Counted from the stretch's first letter, positions 17,070-45,349 are shown. The stretch: 60,724 nt of DNA from an uncultured Alphaproteobacteria bacterium (GCA_944392865.1 CALXYD010000004.1:1-60724), one strand, 5' to 3'. Notes: a model not told the origin generated them from the sequence alone. Made by a program: numbers and translations.

Positions 17070-17840
17070 TTAATTTGTTTTACGTTCAACCTGTCTGTAA
17101 TCCAACACCGTGAACCCCAGCGGATTTTTCAAGCGTTCGCCGAATCTTACCTTTTTGGCGCGATACATTATCTTTACAGAAGCTACCCAAACACTCAATC
17201 GCGGCGTTTCATATTCCGGCATCATATCTTCCACCCTAAATTCCACCTGCCACCAGGTTTCGCCCTTAGCACCGCCAACTTCGGTTACTGATGATATTTT
17301 TATATTACGCGTTATATTATGTTTTCTTATCAACTCCAACGCCGCATCGGCAAAATTTTTACGAAAGCTGTCATACACGCCGGTTGATGACATTTCTTGT
17401 ATCGTGCTGCCGGTTCCCCATCTTCTTTCCATCTCATCAATATCGTTTACGAGCGTATTGCGGAGCAAGATGTATTCACGCACAAATATCTCGGTCAAAT
17501 ATTTATGGTCGTAAATATTTTTTACCGGTTCAATTCTGTATATCTGGTCTTTTTTATCAGAAAAGCTGAACAAATACGGTTCAACACGGTAAAGCGGCAT
17601 AATAGCAAAAATAACGTAGGTCAAAATAAGATTGCAACACATACTCACGGCAAAGATGATTGCAAAAGCACGCGCCGTCCACAAATATCTCTTCTCCGTT
17701 GAGTTCTCTACCACGACATCTGCGTTGCGGCGGCGCTGAGCCCGCGCAGCGGCACCTGCCGGAGATGTCGGATGTCCGCCTTTTCCCTCAAGCAGCAGTT
17801 TTTTTGTTTTATCTGAAGATATTTGTTCCTGTCCGGCCAT
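17070..17840 (-). CDS. virB8: VirB8 family protein (copy adjacent to virB9)
   Basis: Single TM followed by MPLYRVEPY, FVREYILLR and C-terminal NPLGFTVLDYR. Confidence 0.9.
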   Translation of the reverse strand: MAGQEQISSDKTKKLLLEGKGGHPTSPAGAAARAQRRRNADVVVENSTEKRYLWTARAFAIIFAVSMCCNLILTYVIFAIMPLYRVEPYLFSFSDKKDQIYRIEPVKNIYDHKYLTEIFVREYILLRNTLVNDIDEMERRWGTGSTIQEMSSTGVYDSFRKNFADAALELIRKHNITRNIKISSVTEVGGAKGETWWQVEFRVEDMMPEYETPRLSVWVASVKIMYRAKKVRFGERLKNPLGFTVLDYRQVERKTN

Positions 17841-17856
17841 TTATCTGCCCTCTTTT

Positions 17857-18045
17857 CTAGCTCAGAGCCACAAACCAATCCGGCAGAGTTTTAGGCAATT
17901 CAACCTCTATACAGGCGCACGGCGACAGTTTTAATTCATATACATCCTTACCAATTCCGACAGGTTCCGGCTCATAATAATCGCCAATCAAACTGCAAGC
18001 GGCTAAAACAACTACGGCGAAAGCCAAAATTAAAGCTTTATACAT
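17857..18045 (-). CDS. virB7: Small lipoprotein, probable VirB7
   Basis: 62 aa, lipobox LAAC, later SPCAC; lies between two virB8 genes; GAGAGGGG RBS. Confidence 0.7.
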   Translation of the reverse strand: MYKALILAFAVVVLAACSLIGDYYEPEPVGIGKDVYELKLSPCACIEVELPKTLPDWFVALS

Positions 18046-18189
18046 AATACCCCTCTCTTTTAAATATTCTTTCTTTATATATTTAAATCTTTTAATTTTA
18101 AAAGTCTAACGAGAAAACAAATTGCCGCCACTTATCAACAGGCTATATTGTTTGTGAGGAGATTATATCAGAGCAATGCTTAATATTGA

Positions 18190-18948
18190 TTAAATGTCTA
18201 TTTCACTTTGGAAATAACTGTAAACGACAAAACCCAACGGATTTAACAGGCGACGGTAGGCCGTCCTGCGCCCGGGATCAACATAGCCACGAATATTCGC
18301 CGTCCAATACCTTTCCGTGATAACCGGCGTTACATCGCTCTTTCGGCTTATAAAATCGCTTTTAAATGTGTAGTCATAGGTTTTAAATTCTATCTTCCAG
18401 GTATTACTTTTTTCACCGCCGGTTCGTTCCACCGAAAGGATTTCCACCGAGCGGCTTGAATTATTTTCGGTCATTTCTTTTTGCAACAGCGGATAGACTT
18501 TTTCAAATTCTTTATACACATCATAGGTTGACAGATAGGATACAAGACCACCCCACAGCCAGCGATTGTTCATTTCCCTTTCGTCTTTAATATAAGTGTT
18601 GCGGAGCTCAACATATTGTTTCATAAAATTGACCATCATCTGCTCACGCGACTCCATCCAATGGTTAATATACTCCCTTTTTACAATGGATTTGGAATCG
18701 GATAGCACCACATACATCTGCGGATCAATCATTATTTCCGGTGCCAGTTTTTGAATAGCAAATGTTGTGCAGACGCCATATAAAAGGGAGCAAGTCGCAA
18801 GCAAGGCCATCAATCTCGCAATCCATTTATAGTAAACCATTTTTGCCCGACGTACTTCTACCACATCTTCGGTAATAAACTCCGGGGCTTCCCTTGTCTT
18901 TCCTTTATCGGTCAGACGGAGAATTTTCTGGTTTGCGATATTTGCCAT
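18190..18948 (-). CDS. virB8: VirB8 family protein (second paralog)
   Basis: Single TM, FMKQYVELRN, RSVEILSV, W.IEF and C-terminal NPLGFVVYSY; alignable by eye with 17070-17840. Confidence 0.85.
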   Translation of the reverse strand: MANIANQKILRLTDKGKTREAPEFITEDVVEVRRAKMVYYKWIARLMALLATCSLLYGVCTTFAIQKLAPEIMIDPQMYVVLSDSKSIVKREYINHWMESREQMMVNFMKQYVELRNTYIKDEREMNNRWLWGGLVSYLSTYDVYKEFEKVYPLLQKEMTENNSSRSVEILSVERTGGEKSNTWKIEFKTYDYTFKSDFISRKSDVTPVITERYWTANIRGYVDPGRRTAYRRLLNPLGFVVYSYFQSEIDI

Positions 18949-18971: not shown

Positions 18972-21900
18972 TTAGTAAACCGGACAGTAGGCGACGGCCT
19001 GGCTTTGATTGTCCATAGACATCAAGCCCTCTTCTTCAGCTGTTCTTACTGCCGTTTTGTTGATTTCAGCCTTTTCGGCGGCTTCCGCTGCGGAAGCACC
19101 TGTCGCATCCGGCTGAATGGTGGCTAATTCATCCGGATCGCCTGCTCCATCCTCTCCATCTACCGGTGCGCCAAGGGCAGCAAAGTAGTTTTCAATTTTA
19201 TTCAGGCGTTCCTGAACGCGATCTTTATCGGTCTCGTTAATTTCAAGGTTATTATACCCGGCGTGTTCGCCAAGTTCATCGCTATAACCCTGTTTTGCTT
19301 TACGAATCGCTTCATTTTTCAGTTCGTCAAGTTTACAGAAAATCTGGTCATAGTATGAACCGTCTTCGTTTTTCATCCCGCAGCTAACACTATAGACATC
19401 ATCTGATGAATCTTTTGCCAAACCGCCATTTTCCATAATCAGCTGGGCACATTCAGCAGCTTTTGCATTGACGCATTCGCTATCGGATGTATCTTCGCAA
19501 AGTTCTTCGCCGCTGACACTCTCGCCAAGATTATGCATTTGCTGGCATAAGTTCTCCAGAGCGTCGATAACATCTTCTTTGTTGTTATCCAGGGTCTTTT
19601 CGGCATTGCGCTCTGCATTCACCGCCTCCAGGAACGAACCGATAACATTGCGCTTAAACGTTGCTAAGTCGGCGAGTTGGCGTTTTATGCTGTTCTCCTG
19701 ATTTTCATCGTTCAGCAGATAGTCATAGATGTTACGCAACATAGGACGATATTCCAAGTTACCATTTAGGAATTGTCCGAGTTCGCTGTATTTCTCATAC
19801 ATCGGTTCATCCGTGCTGCCCAAACCGTCTTGCAAGGCCTTGGAATCGTCATCATCAAGTGGATTATGGTCTGCCAGCAACTGGCGCACACCACTTTTGT
19901 GATTAGCGACTTCCTGACAGGTCTGCACCGTTGCGCCGGACGGTATGGAGCTACGCTGTTTAAAGCTCATATCGCCAACACCATCGCCACCACCAACATC
20001 AATCACTTTGTTAGAGCTGATGTTTACAATCTTGCCTTTGTTATCCTGTTTACCAAGTTTGCACGGATATACGCCGGCTCGCCCTATAATCGCGCGGTAG
20101 TGGGATTCTTCCGCTCCCGGGATATCGGCATTGTTGATGTAATCTTTCAGCTTTTCCCTACCGTAAGAGCGCTCAACAAACGTCTGCTGATACAGCCCAT
20201 CCTTGCGGAAGTTCGGTGTTGCTAACAAGTAACGCCAAGTTTCCGGCAGATACTCAATCGCTTCTGCAATCTCTATCGTTGTGTGCTTGTATTTTTTATC
20301 TACCAGCGTTGATGGAGACGGCTTGTTATCCTTCTTCGGCACATCGTCATAATCCATTGCGCTAAAGTAGAATACTTCTCTTAGCGGAGCCAGATTCAGC
20401 AACGGTTTGCGCGGGGCTTTGTAATCGCGGCCGTTGTTGCTGTCTACATCTTCGCTAATTGACGGTATCAGTTCTTCCTTCTGCTTACCAAAGGTCGGGA
20501 CGGTTATTGTATACAAACCGCGTGCCGGCAGGCCTACATAATAGTTATCGTCGGTGACTATATCTGCCGGAATACCAAAACTTTCTTCAAGTTTGATACC
20601 TGCCAAATCCAGTTTTGCCTGGTTTTCCGCCTGTTTCAGCTTTTCAATCAAGGCGTAATGCTCGGCTGTTACGGATTGTCCGCCGTTTGCCACTCCATCA
20701 TCGGCATAATTTTCGTGGATGTAGATTTCTTCGGACGGTTCGGTTCCTTCTTCGCCGGTTACACCCCATTTTTCCATAACGGCGGTAATCTCATCGGCGG
20801 CCGAATCGACTTCTTTCTTAATCGTCGTATCCGCGTCTTTGATATATTTATCCTTGATGAGCTCCATGGCGTCTTCTTTGACAATGTCTTTAAGTTTCAA
20901 GGCTATTGAGGCCGGCGTGTAAACGCCATCCGGAATACCCTCAGCCGCAAGAGCGCCGTTGGCAATGACAAATTTGTCTACTACGCCATTGCTTTCCAAC
21001 ATTGCCGGATACTGCCCCCATTTGCCGCCTGAGAACCAGCGTTCTTCAATACTATCCAGGATAATACCCTTCAAATCGCTTTGAACCCGAGCGTCGTCAT
21101 TAACGCCATCGTGGTCGTTTTTATCCACGGTACTGTATAACACGCGCGCCATTGTCCAGGACAAATTATCATACTTATAGTCATTTGTCTGATATTTATC
21201 TTTACAGTCTAAAACGCCGAGTCTCCGCTCTTTAGTGCACCACGGTCTGCGTGTGTTCTCCATACGCGCCGGGTCGCTAACATCGTTTTGGACTTCAAGT
21301 TTCTTTTCAAACAGCTCGTTTTCGGCCTCTATTTTTTCCTGCCATGCCGTTGCCTCTTTAATATAGGTATCGGCAAACGTTTGGGCATACTCGCGAATTT
21401 CTTCGCTTTTGGCATCTATTTTTTCCTGTTGAACATCAAGAAAACTCTGTGCATCATCCATCTCCTCTTGGGCTTCGGTGATGTCGTCTTCTGTATCCAT
21501 TACGTTCTCGAAAATCTTATCCACGTCCAAGCCTTCATACAATTCTTTTTGCATTTCATCTTTACTTTTTCCGGTCGCAACATTGCGCCAACCGTTGCAT
21601 TCGCTGATATTTTCCGGTGCATTCGCACAGAGGAAGGCCAATTCCTCTTTCATCGCCGGAATTATACCGATTATTTCCGCAAGGGTCGGATTTTTTATTT
21701 TTTCCAAATCTTCTCCCGCTCCTCTCAGCAAAGAATCCAAATCGTTTTGCAGGCTTTCCGGTTTCGGGTTGCGATCTTTTAATCTGGCTTCCAACGCCGG
21801 AACACGGACATTCTCAAGGTTATCCAAGTCTTTGACTAAACCTGAGATGTGTTCAATGGAGCGTTGGCGTTCCTGAACAAATTTATTTTTATCTTCCGTT

Positions 21901-24533
21901 GCCTCGTCCAAATCTTTACTATATCGGCCTCTGTCTTCAATGGCTTTGCGCAACTCGTTTTTCAGTTCTGCCATTTTCTTTTCATACTCTTTTACCAGAT
22001 TTTTCAGCGCTTCTTCCGCTTCAAGACGCACCTCCAAAACCGGTTTGAGGTAATCCGAGGCGACTTTGCGGCCGGCGCTTTTGGCATTGGTATAAAGGTG
22101 CGTGGTTTGCGCATCAAGACCATTTATGCCACCCGGACAGGTTGCCTCGTAAGCTCCGCCATTTTTCCAGCTGCCTACGACGGCCGGCATATATCTCTGC
22201 ACTAAGAATTTGGTGCTGAAATCCCATATACCCGGGCATTGTCCGTCATTTACCTCAATCGCAGAATAAGGCGTGCTGGGTTTGGGGAAAGCACAACCGC
22301 CAGTAGAGGTTATTATTCGTTGGTCATACGTTTCACTTTTTTGTGTTCCGTCACAATCAACAGTTTTGGTTCCGTTAATATATCCGCTATCGTTGCTTCC
22401 AGAAATGTTACACGGGACAATTTTTGGACATGTGTAAGCAATTCCTTCAGAATTATAGCAAGTGCATTGGATGGTTTTTTGAGCTGAGCAACTTGCCGAA
22501 TCGCCACTTGAACCGGTGCAAGAACCACTGTATCCATCATTTGTGCAGAACTCTTGAAAAGCATCTTCTACTGTCGCTTCGGTTGTCAATTTGCAGGCGG
22601 TTATGGCCGGAAGGACTTTTTCAATGACGCCGGGGTCACTTTCCTGCAACGCCTGAGTGGTCGCAACGCGATAGGACATCATTCCCTCGTCCACCATTTT
22701 AACAATCATCCGCATATTGCGATATTTGTTGCGCAAATATTCGGATTGTAAATTCTTTTGGTCATTCCACGGATCAAATTTTAATATGCCGTCTTCCGTC
22801 ATCTTCATAATGTGGTCGTAACCGATACGCCAGCTCTTTTCGGCTTTAATGCGGTTTTCGGTTTCAATGTCATCAGCTACCGTGCCGTCCATTAAGAAAT
22901 CTGTATCATCATAATCCAAATTGCTATCTTGGGCAACGGTTTCATACCCTTCTTTCGGAAGCAGTGTCTGGTTGTAATCAGCCGTCGGCGCTTTCGGTTC
23001 GGTATCCGCAGTTACGGTATCCAAAACGCAGGCGACATAATTTTTATTTTCCACTTCAACTTCTTTACCGCTTTCGTCCTTGACCATATATTTACAGGTT
23101 TCGCCTTCCGTATATCCTTCCGGACAACTTCCAACTTCATAATAGCCGTCACATTCATCTATTTTTGAACTGCCGATAATTGTGTCGGTGGTGTCTTCCT
23201 GATATTCTTCAATGACCGTGCGGGAAAGAGAGCCTTCCACACGTTTTTCGTGTTCGTTGGCGATGGCCGGTTGACTACTACCCTCACCATACCATAACGT
23301 TTTACCCTGACCGCCACTATATTTATCCAAGAAGCCGATAACGCATTTTTCACTCTGAGTCAGAACATCCAACATACGCTGATGTATTTCTTTGGCTTTC
23401 AGATATTTACGATATTGCAATTTATAGTCATCAAGCTGAGCTTTCAGATTGTGCAAGCTGATTGCCTGAGAAATCTGGTCGTCAATCGGTTGCAGCTTGC
23501 CCAAGATGGCCGTATCATCCGTATTTTTCAGCTCTGCCCTATCCTCGTTGAAATCTGCGCAATCTTTTCCGCCGCTTTCACAGGCCTCGCTACGCTTATA
23601 GATACCACCAAGCATTGTTCCGTCCGCCAAGGTGTATTCGCGGCTGTCATTATAGGCAAAACGGTAGCCATTATCAAGATAATCTGCTGCCGAGCTCTGC
23701 TCTTCCGGCTCTATCGGGTCAACCATATCTATCTGCATGGCCGCGACAAACTGAGCTTCTGTTGCCGTCAAGTCCTGCACAATGCGCATCAGACGGTCGT
23801 ATACCGTTGTTACGATATAGGCGTTCAGCATTTCGCCATACTGGCCGGGGTTGGTGCTGCTCTCCGAATCGCCCAGCTCATCTTCGGTTTGTTGAGGATT
23901 GATGTAGGCCATTGTCAGACCAAAGAAGACGCAATTTTCCGGCGTGCTTTCTTTATAAAAACCTTTTTGGCAACGGTCTAAGCGGTCAATGGTTTTTTCA
24001 ACCAAGCTCAGATAGTCTTCGGTTACACGGCCGACCAAATAGGTTTCCATTATGATGTCTTGTTGATATTCAGCCGTTTTTTTCTTAAACGCGGTTTTGA
24101 CCGAAGAGTAGTTATCCGGATAGCTGCTTTGGGGGGGATATACTAAAAACAGCGTATTATATGCGTTAAAGAACTCTTCTTCGTTCAAACTATCCGCGCT
24201 AATGCCCAGTTTTTCACTCGCCTGCAATTTGCCTTTGCCCGGCGCTTTGTTTTTTCCGCCTTCTTTTGAGCCTTTGAACTGCGCAACGGCAAAATTTGCC
24301 GCTTTTTTCAAAACTTCAAGTTTCTGCGTGTTAAATTCGGCTTTTACCGTCTGAAGTTCACGATAAGCCGCTTTCACATTGGAAACGATTTTATTGGCGT
24401 TGCCCGGAATATCTACTTCAATATCCCATGGCATCGGCGGAATAAGAAAGAATGCATCCGCTTTTTTTGCTTCCGCTCCCAAGATAAGCACACTCAGAAA
24501 CAGGCATTGTAATAATTTTACGATCTTAGTCAT
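18972..24533 (-). CDS. 1853-aa secreted Cys-rich/coiled-coil protein in the T4SS operon, putative VirB5-like tip adhesin
   Basis: Signal peptide ending ADA, then P-x-P-W-D and a helical segment; roughly 35 Cys by hand count; long coiled coils; overlaps the upstream gene by 8 bp. Function is inferred. Confidence 0.6.
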   Translation of the reverse strand: MTKIVKLLQCLFLSVLILGAEAKKADAFFLIPPMPWDIEVDIPGNANKIVSNVKAAYRELQTVKAEFNTQKLEVLKKAANFAVAQFKGSKEGGKNKAPGKGKLQASEKLGISADSLNEEEFFNAYNTLFLVYPPQSSYPDNYSSVKTAFKKKTAEYQQDIIMETYLVGRVTEDYLSLVEKTIDRLDRCQKGFYKESTPENCVFFGLTMAYINPQQTEDELGDSESSTNPGQYGEMLNAYIVTTVYDRLMRIVQDLTATEAQFVAAMQIDMVDPIEPEEQSSAADYLDNGYRFAYNDSREYTLADGTMLGGIYKRSEACESGGKDCADFNEDRAELKNTDDTAILGKLQPIDDQISQAISLHNLKAQLDDYKLQYRKYLKAKEIHQRMLDVLTQSEKCVIGFLDKYSGGQGKTLWYGEGSSQPAIANEHEKRVEGSLSRTVIEEYQEDTTDTIIGSSKIDECDGYYEVGSCPEGYTEGETCKYMVKDESGKEVEVENKNYVACVLDTVTADTEPKAPTADYNQTLLPKEGYETVAQDSNLDYDDTDFLMDGTVADDIETENRIKAEKSWRIGYDHIMKMTEDGILKFDPWNDQKNLQSEYLRNKYRNMRMIVKMVDEGMMSYRVATTQALQESDPGVIEKVLPAITACKLTTEATVEDAFQEFCTNDGYSGSCTGSSGDSASCSAQKTIQCTCYNSEGIAYTCPKIVPCNISGSNDSGYINGTKTVDCDGTQKSETYDQRIITSTGGCAFPKPSTPYSAIEVNDGQCPGIWDFSTKFLVQRYMPAVVGSWKNGGAYEATCPGGINGLDAQTTHLYTNAKSAGRKVASDYLKPVLEVRLEAEEALKNLVKEYEKKMAELKNELRKAIEDRGRYSKDLDEATEDKNKFVQERQRSIEHISGLVKDLDNLENVRVPALEARLKDRNPKPESLQNDLDSLLRGAGEDLEKIKNPTLAEIIGIIPAMKEELAFLCANAPENISECNGWRNVATGKSKDEMQKELYEGLDVDKIFENVMDTEDDITEAQEEMDDAQSFLDVQQEKIDAKSEEIREYAQTFADTYIKEATAWQEKIEAENELFEKKLEVQNDVSDPARMENTRRPWCTKERRLGVLDCKDKYQTNDYKYDNLSWTMARVLYSTVDKNDHDGVNDDARVQSDLKGIILDSIEERWFSGGKWGQYPAMLESNGVVDKFVIANGALAAEGIPDGVYTPASIALKLKDIVKEDAMELIKDKYIKDADTTIKKEVDSAADEITAVMEKWGVTGEEGTEPSEEIYIHENYADDGVANGGQSVTAEHYALIEKLKQAENQAKLDLAGIKLEESFGIPADIVTDDNYYVGLPARGLYTITVPTFGKQKEELIPSISEDVDSNNGRDYKAPRKPLLNLAPLREVFYFSAMDYDDVPKKDNKPSPSTLVDKKYKHTTIEIAEAIEYLPETWRYLLATPNFRKDGLYQQTFVERSYGREKLKDYINNADIPGAEESHYRAIIGRAGVYPCKLGKQDNKGKIVNISSNKVIDVGGGDGVGDMSFKQRSSIPSGATVQTCQEVANHKSGVRQLLADHNPLDDDDSKALQDGLGSTDEPMYEKYSELGQFLNGNLEYRPMLRNIYDYLLNDENQENSIKRQLADLATFKRNVIGSFLEAVNAERNAEKTLDNNKEDVIDALENLCQQMHNLGESVSGEELCEDTSDSECVNAKAAECAQLIMENGGLAKDSSDDVYSVSCGMKNEDGSYYDQIFCKLDELKNEAIRKAKQGYSDELGEHAGYNNLEINETDKDRVQERLNKIENYFAALGAPVDGEDGAGDPDELATIQPDATGASAAEAAEKAEINKTAVRTAEEEGLMSMDNQSQAVAYCPVY

Positions 24534-25881
24534 TGGTATCCCCTCCCTCTAACCATTGATACTCTTCTGCATTTACTTCAAAACTTTCGGTAGCCGTTAC
24601 CGCCTCGTTTGCCGTTCCGGCCTTTTTGATTAAGTCATCCACATATTCTTTGGTGAGAATATATTTATCTAAGTTAAATTCTAAATAATTGCCGTTCGGC
24701 GTCTTCTCCATTTCCGCATCCAACAGAGCCCTTGCCGCCATATATTGCAGACGGGCGCTTTGCAATTTGGCATACATCAAAAGGGCTCGCATATTTTCAA
24801 TTCTCGTCGCGGAATACGAAGATATTGCCTCCAACTCATTAGCCGCTTTGGGCGTGTTCTCAAAATATTCATCAATTATGGTTGTGCGAACCGGTATCTC
24901 ACGCCTTAAACTTGCCGTAACCTGCAAGAGGTGAGCTGCCGTATTGACCAAAGTATATTTACGCTCACGCGTTGCCGCATCTATTTTGGTCTGATGTTCT
25001 ATCCGGCTTTTTTCATCAGCTGCACTGCTTAATTTCTCCGGATCATAGAAATAACGCTCCATAAAGTCTTTGTAATCTTCTTCGGTCGGACTGAACTTGT
25101 CTACAATATCGTCTTGATTTTGCATACTCCACTCCAGCTCTTCCGCACCTTCGGTTTTATCAACGAAAGTTTCATCTTCTTCATCGGCATCAAGTTCCTC
25201 AATCCGTTCCTGAAAAGAAACATATTTCGGGTCAGCCTCTGTTCCGACTTTGGCTTTTTCCGTCTGCAAGACAGTTAATTGCGCCGCTAAAATTTTTTGC
25301 AAGCCTTCCAGCTCCTTGCAAGCCGTTTCCAAAGCTTTGTATTCCATTTCGGCAGTTATATACTCGTCATACGCCTGTTCTGATTGGCCGGGAATATGTT
25401 TTACCTGTTCATAAGCCTGTTTTAACTGCGCCGCTTTTGCTTTTGTTTCGTTTTTCTCTCTTTCCTTTTCCGCTTTCTTTTCGGTCGTTTCTTTTATGCT
25501 GGCCTGCGTCATTTCAATTTTTACGGTGTAGTACTGATTTTGCGCCGTAACATACTGTTCCTGCTCAGCCTCCAGCTTTTCTTTATTTTTCTGTTTTGTC
25601 CCTTTTGTAAGCTGGCTCATTTTCTTTTTAATGACAGGCATTGCAAAGGTATTGAACTTATCAACGCCCAAATCAAATAACATCTTCTTGTTTATTCCCT
25701 GCGCGCTTAACTGCTTGGCCTGAGAAACGTGCTGAGATATGTTCGTGGTTGCATCGCTAACTTTTCCAACCCAATCGCTGATTTTTGCAGCCAATGTCGC
25801 CGCATCGATAATCAAAGCATACGATGGTGTCGCAGAACCTAACATAAAACAGAAAGCCCATATTGCTGTTGTCTTTTTCAT
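24526..25881 (-). CDS. Secreted coiled-coil protein, VirB5/TrbJ-like
   Basis: Signal peptide ending SYA, then LIIDAATLA and all-helical/coiled-coil composition; ATGA overlap with the upstream gene. Confidence 0.6.
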   Translation of the reverse strand: MKKTTAIWAFCFMLGSATPSYALIIDAATLAAKISDWVGKVSDATTNISQHVSQAKQLSAQGINKKMLFDLGVDKFNTFAMPVIKKKMSQLTKGTKQKNKEKLEAEQEQYVTAQNQYYTVKIEMTQASIKETTEKKAEKEREKNETKAKAAQLKQAYEQVKHIPGQSEQAYDEYITAEMEYKALETACKELEGLQKILAAQLTVLQTEKAKVGTEADPKYVSFQERIEELDADEEDETFVDKTEGAEELEWSMQNQDDIVDKFSPTEEDYKDFMERYFYDPEKLSSAADEKSRIEHQTKIDAATRERKYTLVNTAAHLLQVTASLRREIPVRTTIIDEYFENTPKAANELEAISSYSATRIENMRALLMYAKLQSARLQYMAARALLDAEMEKTPNGNYLEFNLDKYILTKEYVDDLIKKAGTANEAVTATESFEVNAEEYQWLEGGDTND

Positions 25882-26588
25882 TCTCCGCTCTCCTCTGCTT
25901 CTATGGTTTGGGTTGACATTTCTGCTGCGGCCGCTCCGCTAACCATGTAGGCGCGTAACTCCAAAATACGATTTAACCGTTGTTGCGTGGCTATATCAAC
26001 GACATTTTGGGCGCTTAATATCTCGTCTATATTATTATTTTTGAAATTTTGCTGGTATAAAGAACCGTCTTCCATCAGAATACTTTGGCGTGTTGCCACC
26101 GCTTTGGCGAATAACAACGCCGTATCATCGGATAGTATCGCATTCAGCTGGCGCCGATTTTCATTCAGATTTTCCAAATCTTTCCCCCGTCCGCGATGGT
26201 ATATGTATGTATCCTGAATAGTTTTTATCAATGAAACATCTAATTTTTCGTTTAAGTCTCCGTCAGAAAGCTCTTCAGCCCCCGGCATTACGCGTATCTC
26301 GTCCATTGTTTCAACATAAAATTGTTTGGCATCTTTTCCCCATGTTTCCAAGGCTTTCGTATCGCAACTCTTGGGATTTTTATAACAACTTTTAGCCAGT
26401 TCAAAACCTTGACGAGCTCTTTTTTCAATTTCTCTTGCTTTTTTTGCATACTCTTGGATTTTATTTTTATAGTCTTCTGCCTGTTCAAGCACAGACTCTA
26501 TCTTTGCCATAATATCAAATATGGCATAAGCTTCCCGCGTATACATGAACAGGGATAATACCAAAGCTATACATAATTTTTTTCTCAT
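25878..26588 (-). CDS. Secreted helical protein, VirB5/TrbJ-like (canonical size)
   Basis: 236 aa, signal ending AYA, then IFD and a coiled coil; C-terminal SAQNVVDIATQQRLNRILELRA resembles the TrbJ/VirB5 tail; TGATG coupling to the upstream gene. Confidence 0.6.
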   Translation of the reverse strand: MRKKLCIALVLSLFMYTREAYAIFDIMAKIESVLEQAEDYKNKIQEYAKKAREIEKRARQGFELAKSCYKNPKSCDTKALETWGKDAKQFYVETMDEIRVMPGAEELSDGDLNEKLDVSLIKTIQDTYIYHRGRGKDLENLNENRRQLNAILSDDTALLFAKAVATRQSILMEDGSLYQQNFKNNNIDEILSAQNVVDIATQQRLNRILELRAYMVSGAAAAEMSTQTIEAEESGE

Positions 26589-28801
26589 CAGCTTTCTCCT
26601 GCCGTGGACTGGCCAAAGTAATTGTAATCAAAGGTCATTAAGTCCTTTAATATTCCCGTCTGCTGATTTTGGGCATCTGCATCAATAATGCTTAAAATCT
26701 GCAGGGTTGTATAGTAATTCATTTGCGCACCGGCCGAATAGTCATCTCTGGCCGTGGTGCTTTCTTTTATACCTTTTTGCATTGTTACGATGTTTTCGTC
26801 ATCCGCATTCGGCAGTTGTTCCGGATTCGCATAGTCCAAGCTGGATTTATAATTATTGATGATTGCCAAAGTCAGATTGTTAAATGCCGAATCATTATAA
26901 GCTTTCATCTGACGGTTGCGCCAAATCCTTTTACCAAATTCGCCGCCTCCTTCGCTTGCTTTTCCGTCTATGGTGCCACGGCTTGCCCCTTCGGCATACT
27001 TAAACAGGCAATCAGCCAAATTCTGTTCCTTTTCGGTAATCAGGCTGGCATTGTATTTATTTTTGGCGGAAACGGATATATCTTTTGCACGCAGATCGCA
27101 AATTGACAGGATTACGTTGGAAAATATGGCTCTATCCTTTACACCATAATCCGTTTCCTCACTGTCCAGATCACTGCTCTGCATTGTTCCCCAATTTTGA
27201 TTGGTGGCTGTTGCATATTCCGAATCACGTCCATCCAAATATAACTCCAGACCTTCAGTAAAATCCTTAATCATATTTTTTGCGCGGCTTAACGCATCAA
27301 CCCGGCGAATCTCGCTCCAAAGTTTGGGCGCTTCAATGTCCGTCATGCTCATTAACGATATAGCACTACGCGTATTGTCCACATCTTTTAGAGTTTTGCG
27401 CAACATATACAACGTTCCTTTGTTGCTATCGTCATCCGGCTCTAAAGCGCTCCATGTTGCTGCATTTTGTTTGGCGCGGCTGGTGTTGGCAATGTTTGCC
27501 ATACTGTAATCTTCCAAAAGATGTTTATATACGCCGTTCTTTTTATATGGAGAATATAAAAGGTCATCATATAAGTTCGGATAAAGTTCGGGATCTCCTT
27601 TTGCCTTTATAACGCATTCTCTCAAATCTCCCGGACTTTCTTCAATTTCCCCTACATCAAGGTTATCGCAAGCTAATTCTGCCGGCAACAAAAAGCTGCC
27701 GTCCGTTTCAGAAAATATACCGGTCAACAGTGCGGTTGAATGTTCCGAATGAAAATTGAAAGCATAATTTTTGGTTGCTTTTTTTTTCCATAAGCTTGAT
27801 GTTTTTTCGCTACCATCCGAATAGTCGCCGGTATCACTGGAGGCATCCAAAATGCTTTCGGACAAGTCGTCTAATCTATCAGCAATACCTTGTGCCTCAT
27901 TGACAAGGTCGTCTATCAGGGTTTCATCAATTCCGGCTTCCAAAGAGGCCACGCTCTGTTTGAAGTCTTCACCGGCTTTTGTTAAATCTTCACGGGTTAT
28001 TTTACCGGCATAGAAATCGCTTACCGCCTGACTATACGAATCAAGTGCCTCTGCTACCTTTTTACTATGCTGTTCATTATAATTTTCTTTGGCTTCGGTA
28101 ATAATCGCGGTGCTTTTTTCTTTTAAGTCCTCAATATCTTTTTTGATAGTATCGGCTTCTTTGTTAAGTTCTTCTTTCTTTTCCTCGTCCAGCTTTTCAT
28201 TACCGTCAACAGTCGCCATCATTATATCAAGTTCACTGTTAACTTTATTAAGAGAATCGTTAATTTCCTGGCTTGCCTCGTCTAAACTCTCGTTTACGTT
28301 CTGACGAATTGCCTCAGATTCTTCTTGTGCCGTATCTATTGTTTCCTGCACTTCTTCTTCAACAGCGCCGGCATCAACCTGCTCGTTTACACTGTTCACC
28401 AAATTTTCGGCATTTTCCTTTTCTTTTTCTGTTGCGCCATTGAGCATAGCATCCAGTTCTTCAGCGCGTTCTTCCAGATTGTTTAATGTATCTTTTGCAT
28501 CACTAATCGTTCTGGTTACCGTATCTTTTATATTCGTGATAGTGCCCTTTAAATCAGTGGCATATTTTTTTACCGATGCAACCTGTTCGCCGACCATTGT
28601 TATCGTTTTGTTTATTTCCTGTAACTGGCTGGTTGCGTTGCTTACCTGGCCTATTCCGTTGGCTATGGTTTGAGCAAATGAAGTAACTTCCGTCAAGTCA
28701 ATCACAGGCCAAATAAACGCATGAGCAGGACGCCATACAAACAGGCTACCGCATATTATAGCGTATGCTGCTATTTTTTTTGATGCTATCCCTTTTTTCA
28801 T
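26588..28801 (-). CDS. Secreted protein with VirB5/TrbJ-like N-terminus (737 aa)
   Basis: Signal ending AHA, then FIWPVID (PVxD motif typical of VirB5/TrbJ mature N-termini), long helical region and a Cys-containing C-terminal domain; GGGAGGG RBS. Confidence 0.65.
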   Translation of the reverse strand: MKKGIASKKIAAYAIICGSLFVWRPAHAFIWPVIDLTEVTSFAQTIANGIGQVSNATSQLQEINKTITMVGEQVASVKKYATDLKGTITNIKDTVTRTISDAKDTLNNLEERAEELDAMLNGATEKEKENAENLVNSVNEQVDAGAVEEEVQETIDTAQEESEAIRQNVNESLDEASQEINDSLNKVNSELDIMMATVDGNEKLDEEKKEELNKEADTIKKDIEDLKEKSTAIITEAKENYNEQHSKKVAEALDSYSQAVSDFYAGKITREDLTKAGEDFKQSVASLEAGIDETLIDDLVNEAQGIADRLDDLSESILDASSDTGDYSDGSEKTSSLWKKKATKNYAFNFHSEHSTALLTGIFSETDGSFLLPAELACDNLDVGEIEESPGDLRECVIKAKGDPELYPNLYDDLLYSPYKKNGVYKHLLEDYSMANIANTSRAKQNAATWSALEPDDDSNKGTLYMLRKTLKDVDNTRSAISLMSMTDIEAPKLWSEIRRVDALSRAKNMIKDFTEGLELYLDGRDSEYATATNQNWGTMQSSDLDSEETDYGVKDRAIFSNVILSICDLRAKDISVSAKNKYNASLITEKEQNLADCLFKYAEGASRGTIDGKASEGGGEFGKRIWRNRQMKAYNDSAFNNLTLAIINNYKSSLDYANPEQLPNADDENIVTMQKGIKESTTARDDYSAGAQMNYYTTLQILSIIDADAQNQQTGILKDLMTFDYNYFGQSTAGES

Positions 28802-28874
28802 AATGCCCTCCCTTAACCTTACGGACTAATAATGTTTTATACACAAATTATTGACATACTCTTAATTTATCCAG

Positions 28875-30893
28875 TTATTTTGTTCCGGCTTTTTTTATGT
28901 CTTCAGCCAATCGGGAAAAGTTATCCCGCAGCGTCTTTTCATCGCGGTTTATTTCTGCCAGCACGCTCTTATCCGGCATAACATCTATTGTTGCAATATC
29001 TTGCTTTAGTTTTTCGCCTGCTGCCGAAACTTCTGCGGCAGATATATTTCCGTGAACATAGCCATCGACAACCTTTTCATAATTGTTTATGCCGTCAGCG
29101 ATTTTTTCCTGATATTCCTGATTATAATTGTCTTTTGCCGCTTCGGTTACAGCCAATGCCCGGTCAGATACCCGCTGTTGCTCCTTTTTCAGCTCGATCA
29201 GCCTTGCCGAAAATTCTTTTTTATCTGCCGGGGCAATGTCCTTCGTTTTTGCAATCACTTCTTCCAGGCGGTCAAAAACTTTGAGACTGTCCTGTGCTGT
29301 TTTGTTCAGAGAACGTATGGACGCGTCAAAAGCATCGTTTACCTGCTCTGCAACTTTAAGACTTTCTTCCTTTACGGCATCAAATCCTGCCTGAAGTTCA
29401 TCTTTTACTGCTTCATCCACGACATCGGGGATTTCTTCTTCCTCCTCCTCTTCTTCTACCGGCTCATTACTATTGTTCTCTTGTTCCTGTTCTTGCTTTT
29501 CTTTCTTCTCCTTCTTCTTCGCCTTATAATCATTATATTTATCTTTGGCTTTATTATACCCCTCTTCGGCCTTGTTTGCTCCTTTAACGGCATCGCCTTG
29601 TTTTTTGTCGACGTCTTCTATTGTGTCTCTGATACCGCCGGTATCGATAACATCCATCTCATCAACATCATCCAATGCGCCATCAAGATTTTCTGCAACA
29701 TTGCCTAAGTCTTCGGTAGCTTTATTCAGCTTATCCATAAGGTTACCCGAACCTTCGCCGGTGTATTTATCTTTAAGCTCGTCCCAAAGCCCTTCTTCTT
29801 CAGCTTTGTCCCATTCACCTTTCAGATTATCGGCACCTTCCTTGCCCTTATTGGTCAAATCGGTCAGACGCTCCTGGTTATTGTTAATATCGTTCATTGT
29901 ATCTCTGACTTCGCCGGTATCAACAAGTCCTGTTTCATCAACTTTATCAAGAGCATTGTTTAAGTTGTCAGTTACGCCGCTTAAATCTTCCGACGCGTTA
30001 TTCATCTTATCCAGCCAATTGCCAGACTCTTCGCCGGTATATTTATCTTTAAGCTGATCCCAAAGCTTTTCATCTTCAGCTTTATTCCATTCACCCTTGA
30101 GGTTCTCGGCGCCTTCTTTGCCCTGGTTAGCTAAATCGGTCAAGCCTTCCTGCTTGTTGTTGATATCATTCATTGTATCTCTGATTTCGCTTGTATCTAT
30201 CAATCCCGTCTTATCGGCAGCATCAAGAGCCTTGTTCGCATCATCAACCAAGCCAGAAACTTGTTCGGACTTTTCATTGACCTTATCCCAGAAATCTTTT
30301 TTGGGCTTTTCTTCTTCGGTTTTTTCCTTATCTTCTTCTTTTGCTTTATCTTTTTCTCCGCATTCTTCTCCTTCTTTACATCCTCCTTGGTTTTTATCTA
30401 AGAAATCCTGTGCCTGGTGCGCGCCTTGTTGCGCCGAATCTATGCCAGAGGATACTTGTTTGTTGAGGTCTTCAGCCGTTTCCAATACACCATTTGTCTG
30501 ATTTGCCAAATCGTTTGCCAAACCACTTTGTATATTGTTGGCCTCGTTCAAGGTATCTGTTACACTGCTTAAATCCACATCAACCCCCGGAACAAGATTC
30601 ATTGTGCCTTGAACTTCATTTACGATTGATGTGATATTACCTATACTTTTTTGCAATTCCTGACTGAATTGGTTTATGGTATCAATACTTTCGCCGATGG
30701 CTTTTAATGCACCTTCCAACTGTGCAAGCTGTTCCTTTGCCGCGCTCAAACTATCTACGGTTGTCGTAACATTTTGGACAATCGGTATAATTTCGCCAAA
30801 ATCGAATACCGGCCAAAAAGCGTAAGCCGGCTTGTTCAGAAAAAGCGAAAAGCAACAACAAAGTATAGCAATCTGCCGCTTACATTCTCCCAT
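28875..30893 (-). CDS. Secreted protein with VirB5/TrbJ-like N-terminus and internal 92-aa repeats; paralog of 26588-28801
   Basis: Start re-placed at ATG 30893 (GGGAGGGG RBS, promoter just upstream). Signal ending AYA, then FWPVFD; acidic helical repeats. Confidence 0.65.
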   Translation of the reverse strand: MGECKRQIAILCCCFSLFLNKPAYAFWPVFDFGEIIPIVQNVTTTVDSLSAAKEQLAQLEGALKAIGESIDTINQFSQELQKSIGNITSIVNEVQGTMNLVPGVDVDLSSVTDTLNEANNIQSGLANDLANQTNGVLETAEDLNKQVSSGIDSAQQGAHQAQDFLDKNQGGCKEGEECGEKDKAKEEDKEKTEEEKPKKDFWDKVNEKSEQVSGLVDDANKALDAADKTGLIDTSEIRDTMNDINNKQEGLTDLANQGKEGAENLKGEWNKAEDEKLWDQLKDKYTGEESGNWLDKMNNASEDLSGVTDNLNNALDKVDETGLVDTGEVRDTMNDINNNQERLTDLTNKGKEGADNLKGEWDKAEEEGLWDELKDKYTGEGSGNLMDKLNKATEDLGNVAENLDGALDDVDEMDVIDTGGIRDTIEDVDKKQGDAVKGANKAEEGYNKAKDKYNDYKAKKKEKKEKQEQEQENNSNEPVEEEEEEEEIPDVVDEAVKDELQAGFDAVKEESLKVAEQVNDAFDASIRSLNKTAQDSLKVFDRLEEVIAKTKDIAPADKKEFSARLIELKKEQQRVSDRALAVTEAAKDNYNQEYQEKIADGINNYEKVVDGYVHGNISAAEVSAAGEKLKQDIATIDVMPDKSVLAEINRDEKTLRDNFSRLAEDIKKAGTK
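29520..30300 (-). repeat. Intragenic tandem repeat, ~3 copies of 276 bp (92 aa)
   Basis: TATTTATCTTTAAGCT at 29764 and 30040, 276 bp apart. Peptides RDTMNDINN and LKDKYTGE each occur twice; the third copy is diverged. Boundaries approximate. Confidence 0.88.
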
Positions 30894-30961: not shown

Positions 30962-33415
30962 TTATGCTCCCATACCATCCAGATACTTCGTTACAAAGCC
31001 ATCTTCACCAAATTCTTTAACAAGACTTTCAACTAACAACACGTTTTTAATACCGGAATTATATAATTTCAGATATGGCCCAAGACCACTTAAATTTACA
31101 TCCAGGATAACGGACTCGCCTTCGCCGTTTTCGCCGGCATCCGGCCTCTTCAGCAAAATGGCATACGGGCAATCACGGTATGACTTGCCGCTGATGAAAT
31201 CATATTCGCTGTCGGTTAAGTTCCATTTGGCATAAGATTCCGGCGTTGCCTGCGTATTGCGGAAAAATATCATTGTTTTACATTGACCACGGACAGCGTC
31301 GCCAACGCCCAGCTCGTCAACAATATTCGGCTGTTGAAACGCACAGAGGTAGGCCTGGCGCTTTTTACGCCCTTCTTGCAAACCCTTGATAAAATTATCC
31401 CGGAACATTTCATGCTTTAACATCGGCGCCGTTTCATCAATCATAATCAGTGCCGGAGAACCGGTTTCCGTGCTTTCGGACTGAATACGGTGCATAATGT
31501 AGCTAATAGAGGCCGCTGCCAGTGTGTCATCGTCAAAAATTTCCGTAAAATCAAAAGCAACGAAACGATTTGAGCTTAAATCCAAGCTGTCGTGTTCGGC
31601 ATTAAAAATATTGCCGTATTGGTCAGGGTTAATCCAACGATACAGTTCGCGGCGCATTGTCCCGGTCGGTGAAAAACAGCTTTTATACAGATTTTTCAAC
31701 ACTCTTTCTTCCGGGCGCAGATAATCAAACGCCGTGGTTACGGCACGGGCGGCCTCACGCTCCGATAGCGCGTCGGTTGCCATGGTAATTGATTTCAGCC
31801 AATTGCGGAGAAAAGCACGGTTGCTCATGCTGTCACGCGTATCAAACGGATTTAAGGAAACGTTTTTACGGTCGCCGCTAAATCCGACATAAGCTCCCTT
31901 TACCATGTGGGTAAAGATTTCAGCACCACGGTGGCGGTCAAAGAAATATACGCGCAAATCGCCATGCCGCATTGCCTGCCCGGCAAGAAACGTCAGCAAA
32001 GTCGTTTTACCTTGTCCGGTCGGTCCGACAATGCAACAGTGCGCCACCGCCGATTCTGCCGCGGATATATGAAACTGGAAACGATACGGCGAACCGCTCA
32101 TCGTGCGGAAAACCGTAATTGCCCCCTCGCCCCAGTCGCTTCGGGGCAGACCGGTTGACAGTTGCTCAAACGAAACCGCGAGAGAAACAACGCGCGACAG
32201 ATAAAAGTATGTCCGCCCGCAAACATCATATCCCGGAAACTGGTTAAAGAATGTCGCCTGGGCAATCCAGTTTTCACGCACCGGCGTAACACTGAATAAA
32301 CGGCAAATACGCTGAATTTCACTTTCGCCAAACTCAATTTCTTTTATCGTATCCCCTTTGAGAATAAAACTCATTGAGTATTCAACCAAAGACTGGTGGT
32401 CGGCGTCGCTGTCTTCTATGGCGGCAAGCGCTTCGCTGTATTGAGATACAACATCTGATGAAAAACTGGTTACTTCCGACATTTTTTGCTGTTGCACCAA
32501 TATCATCCGGGCTTTAGGCTTAAACAACGGATGAACGTTATGCAAAACCGTCATTTCACAGTCTATCGCCAAAAGGGAAGATATCATACTTTCATCCATA
32601 TAATCGCCGGAATTGCGTATACCCATTGTTAAAGCAAATTTTTCCTTGCCGCCGGAGAAAAATTTGATAATGCCTTCCTCGCCGGTGAAATGTATGCCAT
32701 CAGCGGTTAAAAGTTCTTTCAGTTGGTAGCCTTGGGCGTTGTGAGCCTTAGGTTTTGGACGGCTAATCGGATTTAAGACGCGGACAAACGGATAAATCGG
32801 GCTCATTTCCGCCGGGCTTTCATCATCTTCAAACATTACTTTGATACCGTAATCGTTTAAGTTCGCAACGACTGATTGCGAAGCGTAGTTCAAATCTTTT
32901 ACGGCATCTTTTTTATCTTCTATGGATAAAACGATATAATGGTCATTTTTATAAACACGGCTCAGGCTTTCACGCCATTTATCATCAACTATTTTCAACC
33001 ATTTGTTGCCAAAATCCGCCTTGTTTTGTTCCATCGGGACGCGGTCGCGAATAGTTATAACCCGACAAGTTATTTGCAGGTCGGCCATATTGTCCAGCCA
33101 GGCCTTGCGCGCTTCAAACATAGATAACACGGTTTCTTCGCGCGCAGAAGTCAAATCCACTCCTTCAACTTTGAACACGCGCACATAAGAACCGTTTGTG
33201 CACCTCAGGGTTGAGCCGTCCGAAAGCAGACTGTCAAACGGAAGAAAGTCGGCAACGCGCGATTCACTCGGTTGCGGCAACACCCAAGTTCCGACTTTTG
33301 AAACAAGAGAAACAGCAATGGCAGCCGCAGCTATAATTCCCAAAATAGCAACGACCGTGTCCGCACTTTGCAGACCCGCCATAAACAATGTATAAAAATC
33401 AAAATTAAGGTTCAA
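30962..33415 (-). CDS. virB4: VirB4 type IV secretion ATPase
   Basis: 817 aa; Walker A GPTGQGKT, FFDRHRGAEIF, SLNPF, Walker B IMIDE, GRKK, FQQP; overlaps virB3 by 11 bp. Confidence 0.93.
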   Translation of the reverse strand: MNLNFDFYTLFMAGLQSADTVVAILGIIAAAAIAVSLVSKVGTWVLPQPSESRVADFLPFDSLLSDGSTLRCTNGSYVRVFKVEGVDLTSAREETVLSMFEARKAWLDNMADLQITCRVITIRDRVPMEQNKADFGNKWLKIVDDKWRESLSRVYKNDHYIVLSIEDKKDAVKDLNYASQSVVANLNDYGIKVMFEDDESPAEMSPIYPFVRVLNPISRPKPKAHNAQGYQLKELLTADGIHFTGEEGIIKFFSGGKEKFALTMGIRNSGDYMDESMISSLLAIDCEMTVLHNVHPLFKPKARMILVQQQKMSEVTSFSSDVVSQYSEALAAIEDSDADHQSLVEYSMSFILKGDTIKEIEFGESEIQRICRLFSVTPVRENWIAQATFFNQFPGYDVCGRTYFYLSRVVSLAVSFEQLSTGLPRSDWGEGAITVFRTMSGSPYRFQFHISAAESAVAHCCIVGPTGQGKTTLLTFLAGQAMRHGDLRVYFFDRHRGAEIFTHMVKGAYVGFSGDRKNVSLNPFDTRDSMSNRAFLRNWLKSITMATDALSEREAARAVTTAFDYLRPEERVLKNLYKSCFSPTGTMRRELYRWINPDQYGNIFNAEHDSLDLSSNRFVAFDFTEIFDDDTLAAASISYIMHRIQSESTETGSPALIMIDETAPMLKHEMFRDNFIKGLQEGRKKRQAYLCAFQQPNIVDELGVGDAVRGQCKTMIFFRNTQATPESYAKWNLTDSEYDFISGKSYRDCPYAILLKRPDAGENGEGESVILDVNLSGLGPYLKLYNSGIKNVLLVESLVKEFGEDGFVTKYLDGMGA

Positions 33416-33695
33416 ATTTGTGCCCTTTCACCTTATACAAATTTTTCGGAACGACATTTGTCAACCCGAAAGCCTGTATCATTCCGGATAAGTGAGGGTC
33501 TTTGGCGCCCAAAGCAATAACTATCAAGTGTCCGATTACTATACTGATAATGAAAATCAGCGGGTTGACGTTCGCTATTCCTATCGCCATAAACATAAAC
33601 GGTATCTGCAAGCCGGCATTCAGCGCTGTCGGCAAGACCGGCCCCCAAAATAATTTCGGAGGATTGGCGACTGCTTTCAGTATCATATCTCTCAT
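33405..33695 (-). CDS. virB3: VirB3 inner-membrane protein
   Basis: 96 aa; KAVANPPKLFWGP, two hydrophobic segments, KDP motif; directly upstream of virB4. Confidence 0.85.
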   Translation of the reverse strand: MRDMILKAVANPPKLFWGPVLPTALNAGLQIPFMFMAIGIANVNPLIFIISIVIGHLIVIALGAKDPHLSGMIQAFGLTNVVPKNLYKVKGHKFEP

Positions 33696-33806
33696 AAGAC
33701 CTGCTCCTTTTACCCTTACGGTGATTCTAAGCCGGCAAATCTTACAAAATTATTAAATTCAGCTATTTTTTATTATGATAATAAGATTAAAATAACCGGC
33801 GGACGT

Positions 33807-34178: not shown

Positions 34179-34187
34179 TTTTTCCTC

Positions 34188-34517: not shown

Positions 34518-34547
34518 AATGAGGCCTCCCTCCCGATTATTATAGGC

Positions 34548-45342: not shown

Positions 45343-45349
45343 TGTGACG

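Follow-up and report, generated by a model that had tools for sequence, protein, structure and literature searches.

In a 60,724-nucleotide stretch of DNA from an uncultured Alphaproteobacteria bacterium (GCA_944392865.1, CALXYD010000004.1:1-60724; hereafter the window), five consecutive open reading frames (ORFs) on the minus strand, P1 to P5 (18972-30893), lie between virB4 and two copies of virB8 in the operon of a type IV secretion system (T4SS), the place where virB5 would be expected. We interpret P1 to P5 as a VirB5-position module and consider it somewhat probable that they form a heteromeric assembly at the tip of the stalk or of the pilus, docking on VirB6 paralogs. We favor this reading because of the position of the genes, the predicted export of their products, the VirB5-type N termini of P1, P2, and P4, the coupling of P2 through P5, the constancy of the module in related genomes, and a parallel history of the VirB6 genes. 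The five genes (lengths in amino acids [aa]) are as follows.

28875-30893, minus strand: P1, 672 aa, VirB5-like protein predicted to be exported, lengthened by a repeat.
26588-28801, minus strand: P2, 737 aa, VirB5-like N-terminal helical region (about residues 30-330) and a C-terminal domain (about 340-737).
25878-26588, minus strand: P3, 236 aa, predicted to be exported, all-helical, VirB5-sized, a family of its own.
24526-25881, minus strand: P4, 451 aa, coiled-coil protein predicted to be exported.
18972-24533, minus strand: P5, 1853 aa, giant protein predicted to be exported, forming its own family, with numerous conserved cysteines and a coiled coil in its center.

The original prediction for this locus was of five consecutive genes for secreted VirB5/TrbJ-like paralogs of 236 to 1853 aa in the virB5 position, four of them joined by overlaps. 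We confirmed the ORFs, their coordinates, and their place between virB4 and virB8. The four overlapping genes are P2 to P5, which are linked by three overlaps of 1 nucleotide (nt) (P2/P3), 4 nt (P3/P4), and 8 nt (P4/P5). Gaps of 68 nt between virB4 and P1, 73 nt between P1 and P2, and 23 nt between P5 and virB8 make up the remaining junctions. For P1, the ATG at 30893, which lies 3' of GGGAGG, was taken as the start; the longest frame opens at a TTG at 30959.

Signal peptides were called from a basic stretch followed by a hydrophobic segment ending in AxA, and all five proteins have this pattern. The cleavage sites (marked by a slash) read AYA/FWPVFDF in P1, AHA/FIWPVID in P2, AYA/IFDIMA in P3, SYA/LIIDAA in P4, and ADA/FFLIPPMPWDIEVD in P5, and the mature N terminus of P4 is LIIDAATLAAKISDW. 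The N termini that had been quoted (FWPVFD, FIWPVID, IFD, LIID, and PMPWD) were therefore correct. A Kyte-Doolittle scan found at most one hydrophobic segment, at the N terminus, in each of P1 to P5; as had been claimed, none is polytopic. Taken together, these features make all five proteins look Sec-exported to the periplasm.

We then compared the proteins with VirB5 itself, using as a reference 30 PF07996-positive ORFs drawn from 2 of 201 genomes of the class and 29 of 401 genomes of the phylum. Most mature reference proteins start with [GAQ][IV]P[VT]x[D] (GIPVID, QVPVID, GVPTFD, and similar), and a minority start with [IV]V[HY]DP. Directly behind the signal peptide, P1 (FWPVFD) and P2 (IWPVID) fit this start, and P3 (IFD), P4 (LIID), and P5 (PMPWD) fit it loosely; some P5 orthologs elsewhere start with GIPTID, GIPVIEP, or LLPPGPxTPTVD. 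Within the source genome, the motif occurs at residues 16 to 61 in 16 of 2874 ORFs of at least 100 aa, and by visual reading of that list it stands directly behind an AxA site only in P1 and P2. With signal peptides stripped, hhalign against the VirB5 reference gave a probability of 89.6% for P1 (E = 1.9e-6, 50 columns) and 69.6% for P2 (E = 4e-5, 40 columns), and a family-wide profile of P1 and P2 together gave 90.2%. At E values up to 0.1, PF07996 was found in 5 of 21 P1 orthologs (best, 3.9e-5) and 4 of 21 P2 orthologs (best, 6e-4), and it was the family matched by the most P1 members. A VirB5 hidden Markov model (HMM) built with signal peptides ranked P1 (27.1 bits) and P2 (18.9 bits) first and second among 4080 ORFs.

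Several of these comparisons also weigh against a VirB5 kinship and, with it, against a VirB5-type assembly. The VirB5 HMM stripped of signal peptides missed P1 and P2 in the genome at E values up to 10; therefore, the signal peptide and the start motif contribute much of the HMMER score. PF07996 was found in one place in the genome, the N terminus of P2, at 20.3 bits against a gathering cut-off of 24.7, and it was not listed for P1 to P5 of the window at E values up to 0.1. No member was seen to reach the cut-off, the matches of the orthologs being displayed without bit scores. The similarity is weak, covers about 40 to 50 N-terminal columns, and never extends past about the first helix, and P1, P2, P4, and P5 are 2 to 8 times as large as a canonical VirB5. 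The profile similarity to VirB5 was confined to P1 and P2: in the stripped hhalign comparison P3 reached 0.6%, P4 3.4%, and P5 1.2%, and all three stayed below 4% with family-wide profiles. When the stripped VirB5 model was run on 194 ORFs, a few P3-class proteins from other genera gave a weak HMMER signal (E = 6e-4 to 0.3), which was set aside as composition noise; a deep P3 alignment gave 0.8% in hhalign. Given these caveats, P1 and P2 can still be read as strongly diverged, enlarged relatives of VirB5, and the resemblance of P3 and P5 to VirB5, judged by their N termini, is a loose one of motif with no significant similarity. TraH of the F plasmid is reported to be a functional VirB5 that is located at the tip and has just a local N-terminal helix-loop-helix in common with VirB5 (preprint 10.64898/2026.07.31.741991, in the portion available). 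This precedent makes a VirB5 reading of P1 and P2 respectable without proving it.

The relationships among the five proteins were examined in the same way. BLASTP linked P1 and P2 twice, N terminus to N terminus and P1 481-671 to P2 127-322 (E = 1e-13 to 1e-15), and linked no other pair among P1 to P5. Aligned as families by hhalign, P1 and P2 matched with a probability of 100% (E = 1.2e-44) over 326 columns, covering the first 330 residues of P2. Judged by these alignments, P1 and P2 are clear paralogs; their identity is about 25 to 29%. When signal peptides were included, hhalign also paired P3 with P4 (94.6%) and P4 with P2 (96% over 46 columns), and once they were stripped, all pairs but P1-P2 fell to 18.5% or less. 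We then made broader profiles, family-wide and limited to the mature first 160 residues. With these, P1/2 matched P4 at 93.0% (E = 3.6e-7) over 56 columns in register, and P3 and P5 remained below 5% against everything. By this comparison, P4 shares the N-terminal region of P1 and P2 (about 56 residues). An apparent P3-P4 homology was dismissed since the signal peptides had been in the alignment. The prediction of five VirB5/TrbJ-like paralogs therefore stood for P1 and P2 and, at its N terminus, for P4 as a relative of P1 and P2; P3 and P5 showed no significant similarity to the others.

Pfam and NCBIfam searches of P1 to P5 returned nothing beyond coiled-coil noise (apolipoprotein, SMC, Rad50), and long coiled coils are present in P1, P2, P4, and the middle of P5. 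P1 is 672 aa in the window species and 348 to 501 aa in its orthologs because of a tandem repeat, located as follows.

29753-30288, no strand assigned: 276-bp tandem repeat in P1, 1.9 copies, 74% matches.

The C-terminal domain of P2 (about residues 340-737) is conserved and rich in cysteine and aromatic residues; the 50 relatives found for it all come from the same lineage and are unnamed or called hypothetical. Some P2 relatives carry a precomputed PF26039 label. The P5 family has invariant cysteines, and P5 gave no Pfam, NCBIfam, Protein Data Bank (PDB) sequence, or ESM Atlas match past coiled-coil noise.

P3 is the one protein of VirB5 size. It has no Pfam or NCBIfam match, and no Pfam family appeared in any of the 42 P3 relatives scanned. 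A word-index search found 60 close relatives, whose names were limited to two generic ones, and an exhaustive profile search yielded 90 proteins, of which 46 had E values of 1e-10 or lower. About 45 more distant relatives are 215 to 285 aa long and align end to end. The 13 loci retrieved with five of the distant relatives came mostly from metagenome-assembled genomes of uncultured Alphaproteobacteria, and one came from a bin labelled Lachnospiraceae. Run against 401 genomes of the class, the P3 profile matched 7, namely, the window genome, two of the sister genus, and four weakly. Structure modelling covered P3 among the five proteins. AlphaFold2 gave a mean predicted local distance difference test (pLDDT) score of 52 with 21 sequences, which was unusable, and 73 with 114 sequences; the latter model has helices at 26-70, 77-89, 118-128, 137-172, and 187-224, the last two being long and C-terminal. 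VirB5 proteins such as TraC (1R8I) and CagL form a three-helix bundle that bears a small appendage. Foldseek of the P3 model against the PDB found nothing at E values of 0.001 or lower, with CagL at rank 33 (E = 5.7). With VIA-align, the best Z among 48,161 chains was 7.3, with generic helical hairpins throughout. In the ESM Atlas, P3 led to unnamed clusters and to no usable structural neighbor. PDB sequence-profile searches with the P3, P2, P5, and P4 alignments returned just designed helical bundles, haemagglutinin HA2, tropomyosin, and similar coiled-coil noise. This failure of P3 to find a specific structural counterpart, like the result of the sequence-profile searches, also counts against a VirB5-type assembly. 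A complex prediction for the P2 N-domain and P4 with P3 as the partner scored 0.11 against a mark of 0.32, without controls, and is neither support nor counter-evidence. The P3-, P4-, and P5-like proteins represent at least three protein families without any annotation.

To describe the conservation of the module, we surveyed the genus and then the family. P2 homologs were found in all 24 other genomes of the genus and in none of 16 genomes that represented as many other families of the class, and a locus search from P2 alone found no related loci. The order virB3-virB4-P1-P2-P3-P4-P5-virB8-virB8-virB9 is whole in 18 of 20 loci of the genus and collinear up to the contig ends in the other two. 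Identity to the window proteins in these loci is 82 to 96% for VirB4, 54 to 85% for VirB8, and 29 to 74% for P1 to P5. The ratio of nonsynonymous to synonymous substitution rates (dN/dS), a check that had been proposed for these genes, was taken from one close species pair (loci L014 and L028), the window and its relatives being saturated at synonymous sites. It was 0.087, 0.059, 0.052, 0.070, and 0.096 for P1 to P5, in order, compared with 0.006 for VirB4, 0.021 and 0.035 for the two VirB8 proteins, and 0.053 for VirB9. P1 to P5 are thus under purifying selection that is looser than that on the ATPase.

VirB4 is single copy in the source genome and was found in 29 of 31 genomes of the family. 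We examined the DNA 3' of virB4 in 20 genomes of other genera, and 18 loci were complete to virB8. In all 18, the first module gene is P1/2-like (276 to 808 aa, starting QWPTLD, QIPVVD, LIPTVD, GLPTVD, or QFPVFD) and the last before virB8 is P5-like (1135 to 1855 aa). The middle genes are usually a P3-like one (about 215 to 260 aa) and a P4-like one (about 390 to 630 aa). Profiles of all four classes matched in 10 of the 18 loci; elsewhere, the middle genes were weakly labelled, unlabelled, split, or missing, and locus L102 lacked a called P3-like ORF. With two apparently spurious ORFs of less than 100 aa omitted, virB4 and virB8 were separated by four genes in nine loci, three in two, five in four, six in two, and eight in one. 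In the sister genus the set is 363, 230, 583, and 1281 aa, the first protein starting GIPVTDPG and the last FGIPVIEP, and the 363-aa protein combines a P1-like N terminus with a C terminus like the P2 C-domain. As far as these resemblances show, the module is an old set of four classes (VirB5-like, P3-like, P4-like, and giant P5-like) that extends over most of the family, and this genus has five genes because the first module gene was duplicated. The five-fold expansion originally proposed gave way to this conserved four-class set, with no recent amplification.

In another family of the class, one genome (G043, locus L073, G043:C26, 4489-13820, minus strand) encodes a VirB3 and a VirB4 that is 56% identical to that of the window, followed by five predicted exported proteins of 230, 571, 262, 596, and 590 aa, two of which have VirB5-type starts (FTVPTLD and GWPTVD); housekeeping genes follow, with no virB8 nearby. 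The closest plasmid VirB4, 35.8% identical, is on a Microvirga plasmid; the genes behind it encode a VirB5 of 273 aa, a polytopic protein of 228 aa, an exported protein of 428 aa, and a lipoprotein of 58 aa. In the window, the T4SS operon is chromosomal because yidC and a GTPase gene flank it. We read the system as a chromosomal, vertically inherited, duplication-rich P-type T4SS of an uncultured alphaproteobacterial family. No paper on the T4SS of this lineage was found in literature searches whose taxon names were partly guesses.

This conservation bears on the possibility that the P proteins, P5 above all, are cargo, that is, periplasmic substrates that are exported by Sec and then expelled by the T4SS, as pertussis toxin is via Ptl. 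All five proteins carry export signals and would be co-transcribed with the machine, and P5 is large, cysteine-rich, and without known function, as such a substrate might be. However, neither Pfam nor NCBIfam found a toxin or enzyme domain in P1 to P5, and the recurrence of one class order beside virB4, in most of the 18 genera and in a genome from another family, is what machine parts, and not cargo, typically show. The VirB5-like N terminus common to P1, P2, and P4 would be unexpected in cargo, and with a VirD4 present, substrates could be recruited from the cytoplasm. The pertussis toxin-like alternative had been offered with the original prediction; we found nothing in its support and hold it to be quite improbable.

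Alternatively, each protein, or each VirB5-like one, could cap a different pilus variant meant for a different target. The operon has three VirB2 paralogs, the P proteins diverge fast, and P1 varies in length through its repeat, all of which would suit a set of alternative tip adhesins; the published model for Bartonella Trw (TrwJ and TrwL) is of this type in the portions available of PMC2883598 and PMC4676284. Against it, the classes are not interchangeable, ranging from 220 to 1850 aa with different sequences, and they are kept together in most genera and translationally coupled, a better fit to one assembly. Moreover, gene-wide dN/dS in the one species pair showed no gene-wide positive selection. 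We therefore regard interchangeable adhesins as a rather improbable explanation, and a single assembly in the VirB5 position as the better one.

We next turned to VirB6. The stalk and the pilus tip of model T4SSs are homopentamers of one VirB6 and one VirB5. PF04610 matched one place in the source genome, on contig C10, where the following array lies.

Contig C10, about 31850-40820 (locus L074, 7848-16820), minus strand: five tandem polytopic VirB6 paralogs of 446, 591, 431, 475, and 1029 aa.

Each has 6 to 8 hydrophobic segments, they are mutually related (E = 1e-3 to 1e-77), and the 1029-aa protein is the last and has a long C-terminal extension. A VirD4 coupling protein is encoded on contig C5. 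Rickettsia, with five VirB6 paralogs, had been proposed as the mirror image of the P1-P5 array; this did not survive the finding of five tandem VirB6 paralogs on another contig, and both components are multiplied here. Downstream of the VirB6 array we noted genes for a helix-turn-helix regulator and a 984-aa protein without a family.

VirB6 paralog matches were found in 30 of 31 family genomes. For counting, an ORF had to match the five-paralog profile and to have at least 4 hydrophobic segments, and 16 of the 18 genera were used (G808 and G823 were left out). The number of VirB6 genes per genome was four in 12 of these genera and five in 4. It equalled the number of module genes in 12 of the 16 genera and also in the source genome (five and five), as counted by a crude rule of ORFs and hydrophobic segments in which some adjacent short ORFs may be split genes, over genomes that are related and not independent, and with no test statistic. 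In most genomes, the VirB5-slot set thus follows the VirB6 paralogs in number. Additionally, the 446- and 591-aa VirB6 proteins of the source genome both have the array's first VirB6 as their best match in each of the 4 genera compared, and the 431-, 475-, and 1029-aa proteins correspond to positions 2, 3, and 4 elsewhere. Both the first VirB6 and the first, VirB5-like gene of the module have thus doubled in this genus.

In the reading we favor, P1 to P5 would be exported by Sec into the periplasm, with P3 and P5 as lineage-specific partners co-translated with P2 and P4. Their N-terminal segments would mount on a stalk base made of the VirB6 paralogs encoded elsewhere, pilus growth would carry module proteins to the tip, and the large, variable C-terminal parts may contact the target as adhesins. 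The location at the stalk or tip, the binding to VirB6, and the adhesin role are all inferred. In a stricter version, every VirB6 paralog would be matched by a VirB5-position protein of its own, in four pairs ancestrally and five in this genus after the joint duplication, giving a hetero-oligomeric, five-fold stalk of five distinct VirB6 and five distinct tip subunits and an asymmetric tip with a 1,853-aa adhesin. We think this version unlikely. Two findings tell against the reading we favor. The counts disagree in 4 of the 16 genera, where four VirB6 genes face six, six, and five module genes and five face eight, quite apart from the limits of the counting rule given above. In addition, most genera have four classes, so that a simple one-to-one filling of a five-fold stalk fails.

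The remainder of the operon supplies the setting for a further alternative. It runs on the minus strand from about 35.2 kb down to 3.0 kb of the window in the order three VirB2 genes, a VirB3-sized ORF, VirB4, P1 to P5, two VirB8 genes, VirB9-SPOR, two beta-flower giants, and VirB11. Its genes other than P1 to P5 are as follows.

34738-35184, 34188-34517, and 33807-34178, minus strand: three TrbC/VirB2 pilin paralogs (PF04956; E = 2.7e-7, 1.9e-10, and 3e-4).
33405-33695, minus strand: VirB3-sized ORF of 96 aa with one hydrophobic segment, assigned by position and size, with no Pfam match.
30962-33415, minus strand: VirB4 ATPase (TIGR00929, E = 7e-112, and PF03135), immediately upstream of P1.
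18190-18948 and 17070-17840, minus strand: two VirB8 paralogs (PF04335; E = 2e-12 and 3e-18), immediately downstream of P5.
14979-17051, minus strand: VirB9-SPOR, a VirB9 homolog with a C-terminal SPOR domain.
8389-15003, minus strand: beta-flower protein of 2204 aa, between VirB9 and VirB11.
4014-8387, minus strand: beta-flower and TrbI/VirB10 protein of 1457 aa, between VirB9 and VirB11.
2961-3941, minus strand: VirB11, the last gene of the operon listed.

The VirB3-sized ORF is 75 to 91% identical within the genus. The SPOR (peptidoglycan-binding) domain of the VirB9 homolog has an E value of 6e-4, slightly below the cut-off, and the 2204-aa protein has dozens of beta-flower, DUF3659, and RHS-like repeats. 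In other genera, VirB9 is followed by a protein of about 1150 to 1400 aa starting MSKEVLTHSE and by one with EITAIDFNGDLIG repeats. Between the virB8 pair of several genera (loci L085, L097, L098, and L099) there is a lipoprotein-like ORF of 72 to 75 aa (LSACG...ELKLSPCAC), which is likely VirB7; the matching site in the window is a 349-nt gap between the two virB8 genes (17841-18189).

With envelope parts of this size in the operon (the VirB9-SPOR protein, the 2204-aa beta-flower protein, and the 1457-aa VirB10), P1 to P5 could instead be a periplasmic scaffold: helical proteins that thicken or lengthen the periplasmic part of the machine together with the beta-flower and VirB10 giants and never leave the envelope, comparable to accessory proteins of Cag and Dot/Icm. 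The long coiled coils of P1, P2, P4, and mid-P5 would fit such a role, and purifying selection near the level of VirB9 suits structural parts. However, a scaffold leaves unexplained the VirB5-type N terminus and VirB5 slot of P1 and P2. The 29 to 74% identity of the P proteins within the genus, against 82 to 96% for VirB4, is a divergence more usual for exposed parts, and the fact that the first VirB6 was duplicated together with the first module gene points to the stalk. We consider a scaffold that stays within the envelope doubtful and prefer an assembly at the stalk or pilus tip.

Next to the T4SS operon, and divergent from it, lies a type IVb pilus-like cluster (35364-46018, plus strand, and 46021-46971, minus strand). 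It contains a 480-aa ORF without a family, a TcpQ-domain protein, a secretin, a PilO-like protein, a 544-aa ORF without a family, a T2SSE ATPase, a T2SSF platform protein, and, on the opposite strand, a second T2SSE-type ATPase. A T4SS beside a thin-pilus cluster is reminiscent of IncI plasmids. The window also holds ordinary chromosomal genes, namely, an XerC/D-like tyrosine recombinase (50573-51487, minus strand) and an AddAB-type helicase-nuclease pair (53042-59327, plus strand).

Several known systems invite comparison. P1 and P2 resemble VirB5/TrbJ (PF07996; TraC of pKM101 and TrwJ of R388) in that a gene with a Sec signal lies right behind virB4 and encodes an all-helical protein with weak profile matches, and in that the mature protein starts with a hydrophobic residue and P-V-x-D and continues into a long helix. 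However, P1 and P2 are three times longer, P2 bears an extra 400-aa C-terminal domain, and P3, P4, and P5 are additional proteins without a counterpart in the model systems. F-plasmid TraH is similar in being a VirB5 recognizable merely by its local N-terminal helix-loop-helix and by its fit to VirB6, and it differs in being a single protein of an F-type system. The CagH-CagI-CagL set of Helicobacter Cag consists of adjacent exported proteins, one of them VirB5-like, that are pilus-associated and belong to an enlarged T4SS with a giant VirB10; the likeness is that here, too, there are several adjacent proteins predicted to be exported, VirB5-like ones among them, in a machine with a giant VirB10. 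The C-terminal motif that CagH, CagI, and CagL share was, however, not apparent by eye in P1 to P5, and no sequence similarity was found. CagL is mentioned as a VirB5 homolog in PMC9259494, as far as the text of that source was available. In the same text, the R388 stalk consists of two pentamers, VirB5 mounted on VirB6; every VirB5 sits between a pair of VirB6 subunits, and growth of the pilus is proposed to take place between the two proteins and so to bring VirB5 to the tip (PMC9259494).

The original prediction had treated VirB5 as usually single copy, and Bartonella Trw is a published exception: trwJ (VirB5) is amplified in tandem together with trwI and trwH, trwL is amplified too, and the system lacks a coupling protein, according to the available portion of PMC2883598. 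The Trw locus and this one both have more than one VirB5-like gene and several VirB2 genes, which evolve faster than the core. Trw repeats one three-gene unit of the virB5-virB6-virB7 type, whereas here P1 and P2 are the sole paralog pair and the others belong to different families; the VirB6 copies are at a separate locus with no polytopic gene in the array, and VirD4 is present. The rvh T4SS of the Rickettsiales is described without VirB5 and with duplicated VirB4 and VirB9 in the parts available of PMC4676284 and of preprint 10.1101/2025.08.29.673095. Compared by gene content alone, it shares with the present system scattered chromosomal loci, tandem virB6 genes with long extensions, duplicated virB8, and several virB2 genes. 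In contrast to rvh, there is a whole module in the VirB5 slot here and one VirB4, and virB3-virB4 precede the secreted array and not a virB6 array.

The cause of the component duplications in alphaproteobacterial T4SSs, and pilus growth without VirB5, are called a mystery in the available part of preprint 10.1101/2025.08.29.673095. The family described here is a natural comparison, combining rvh-like multiplication of VirB2, VirB6, and VirB8 with four to five exported proteins in the VirB5 slot. What is new is a VirB5-position module of four to five different proteins predicted to be exported, three of them in unannotated families, whose number is coupled to that of the VirB6 paralogs. If the stalk were indeed hetero-oligomeric, this would give a structural reason for the VirB6 multiplications in alphaproteobacterial (rvh-like) systems and would suggest that unrecognized VirB5 substitutes exist in rvh-like systems.

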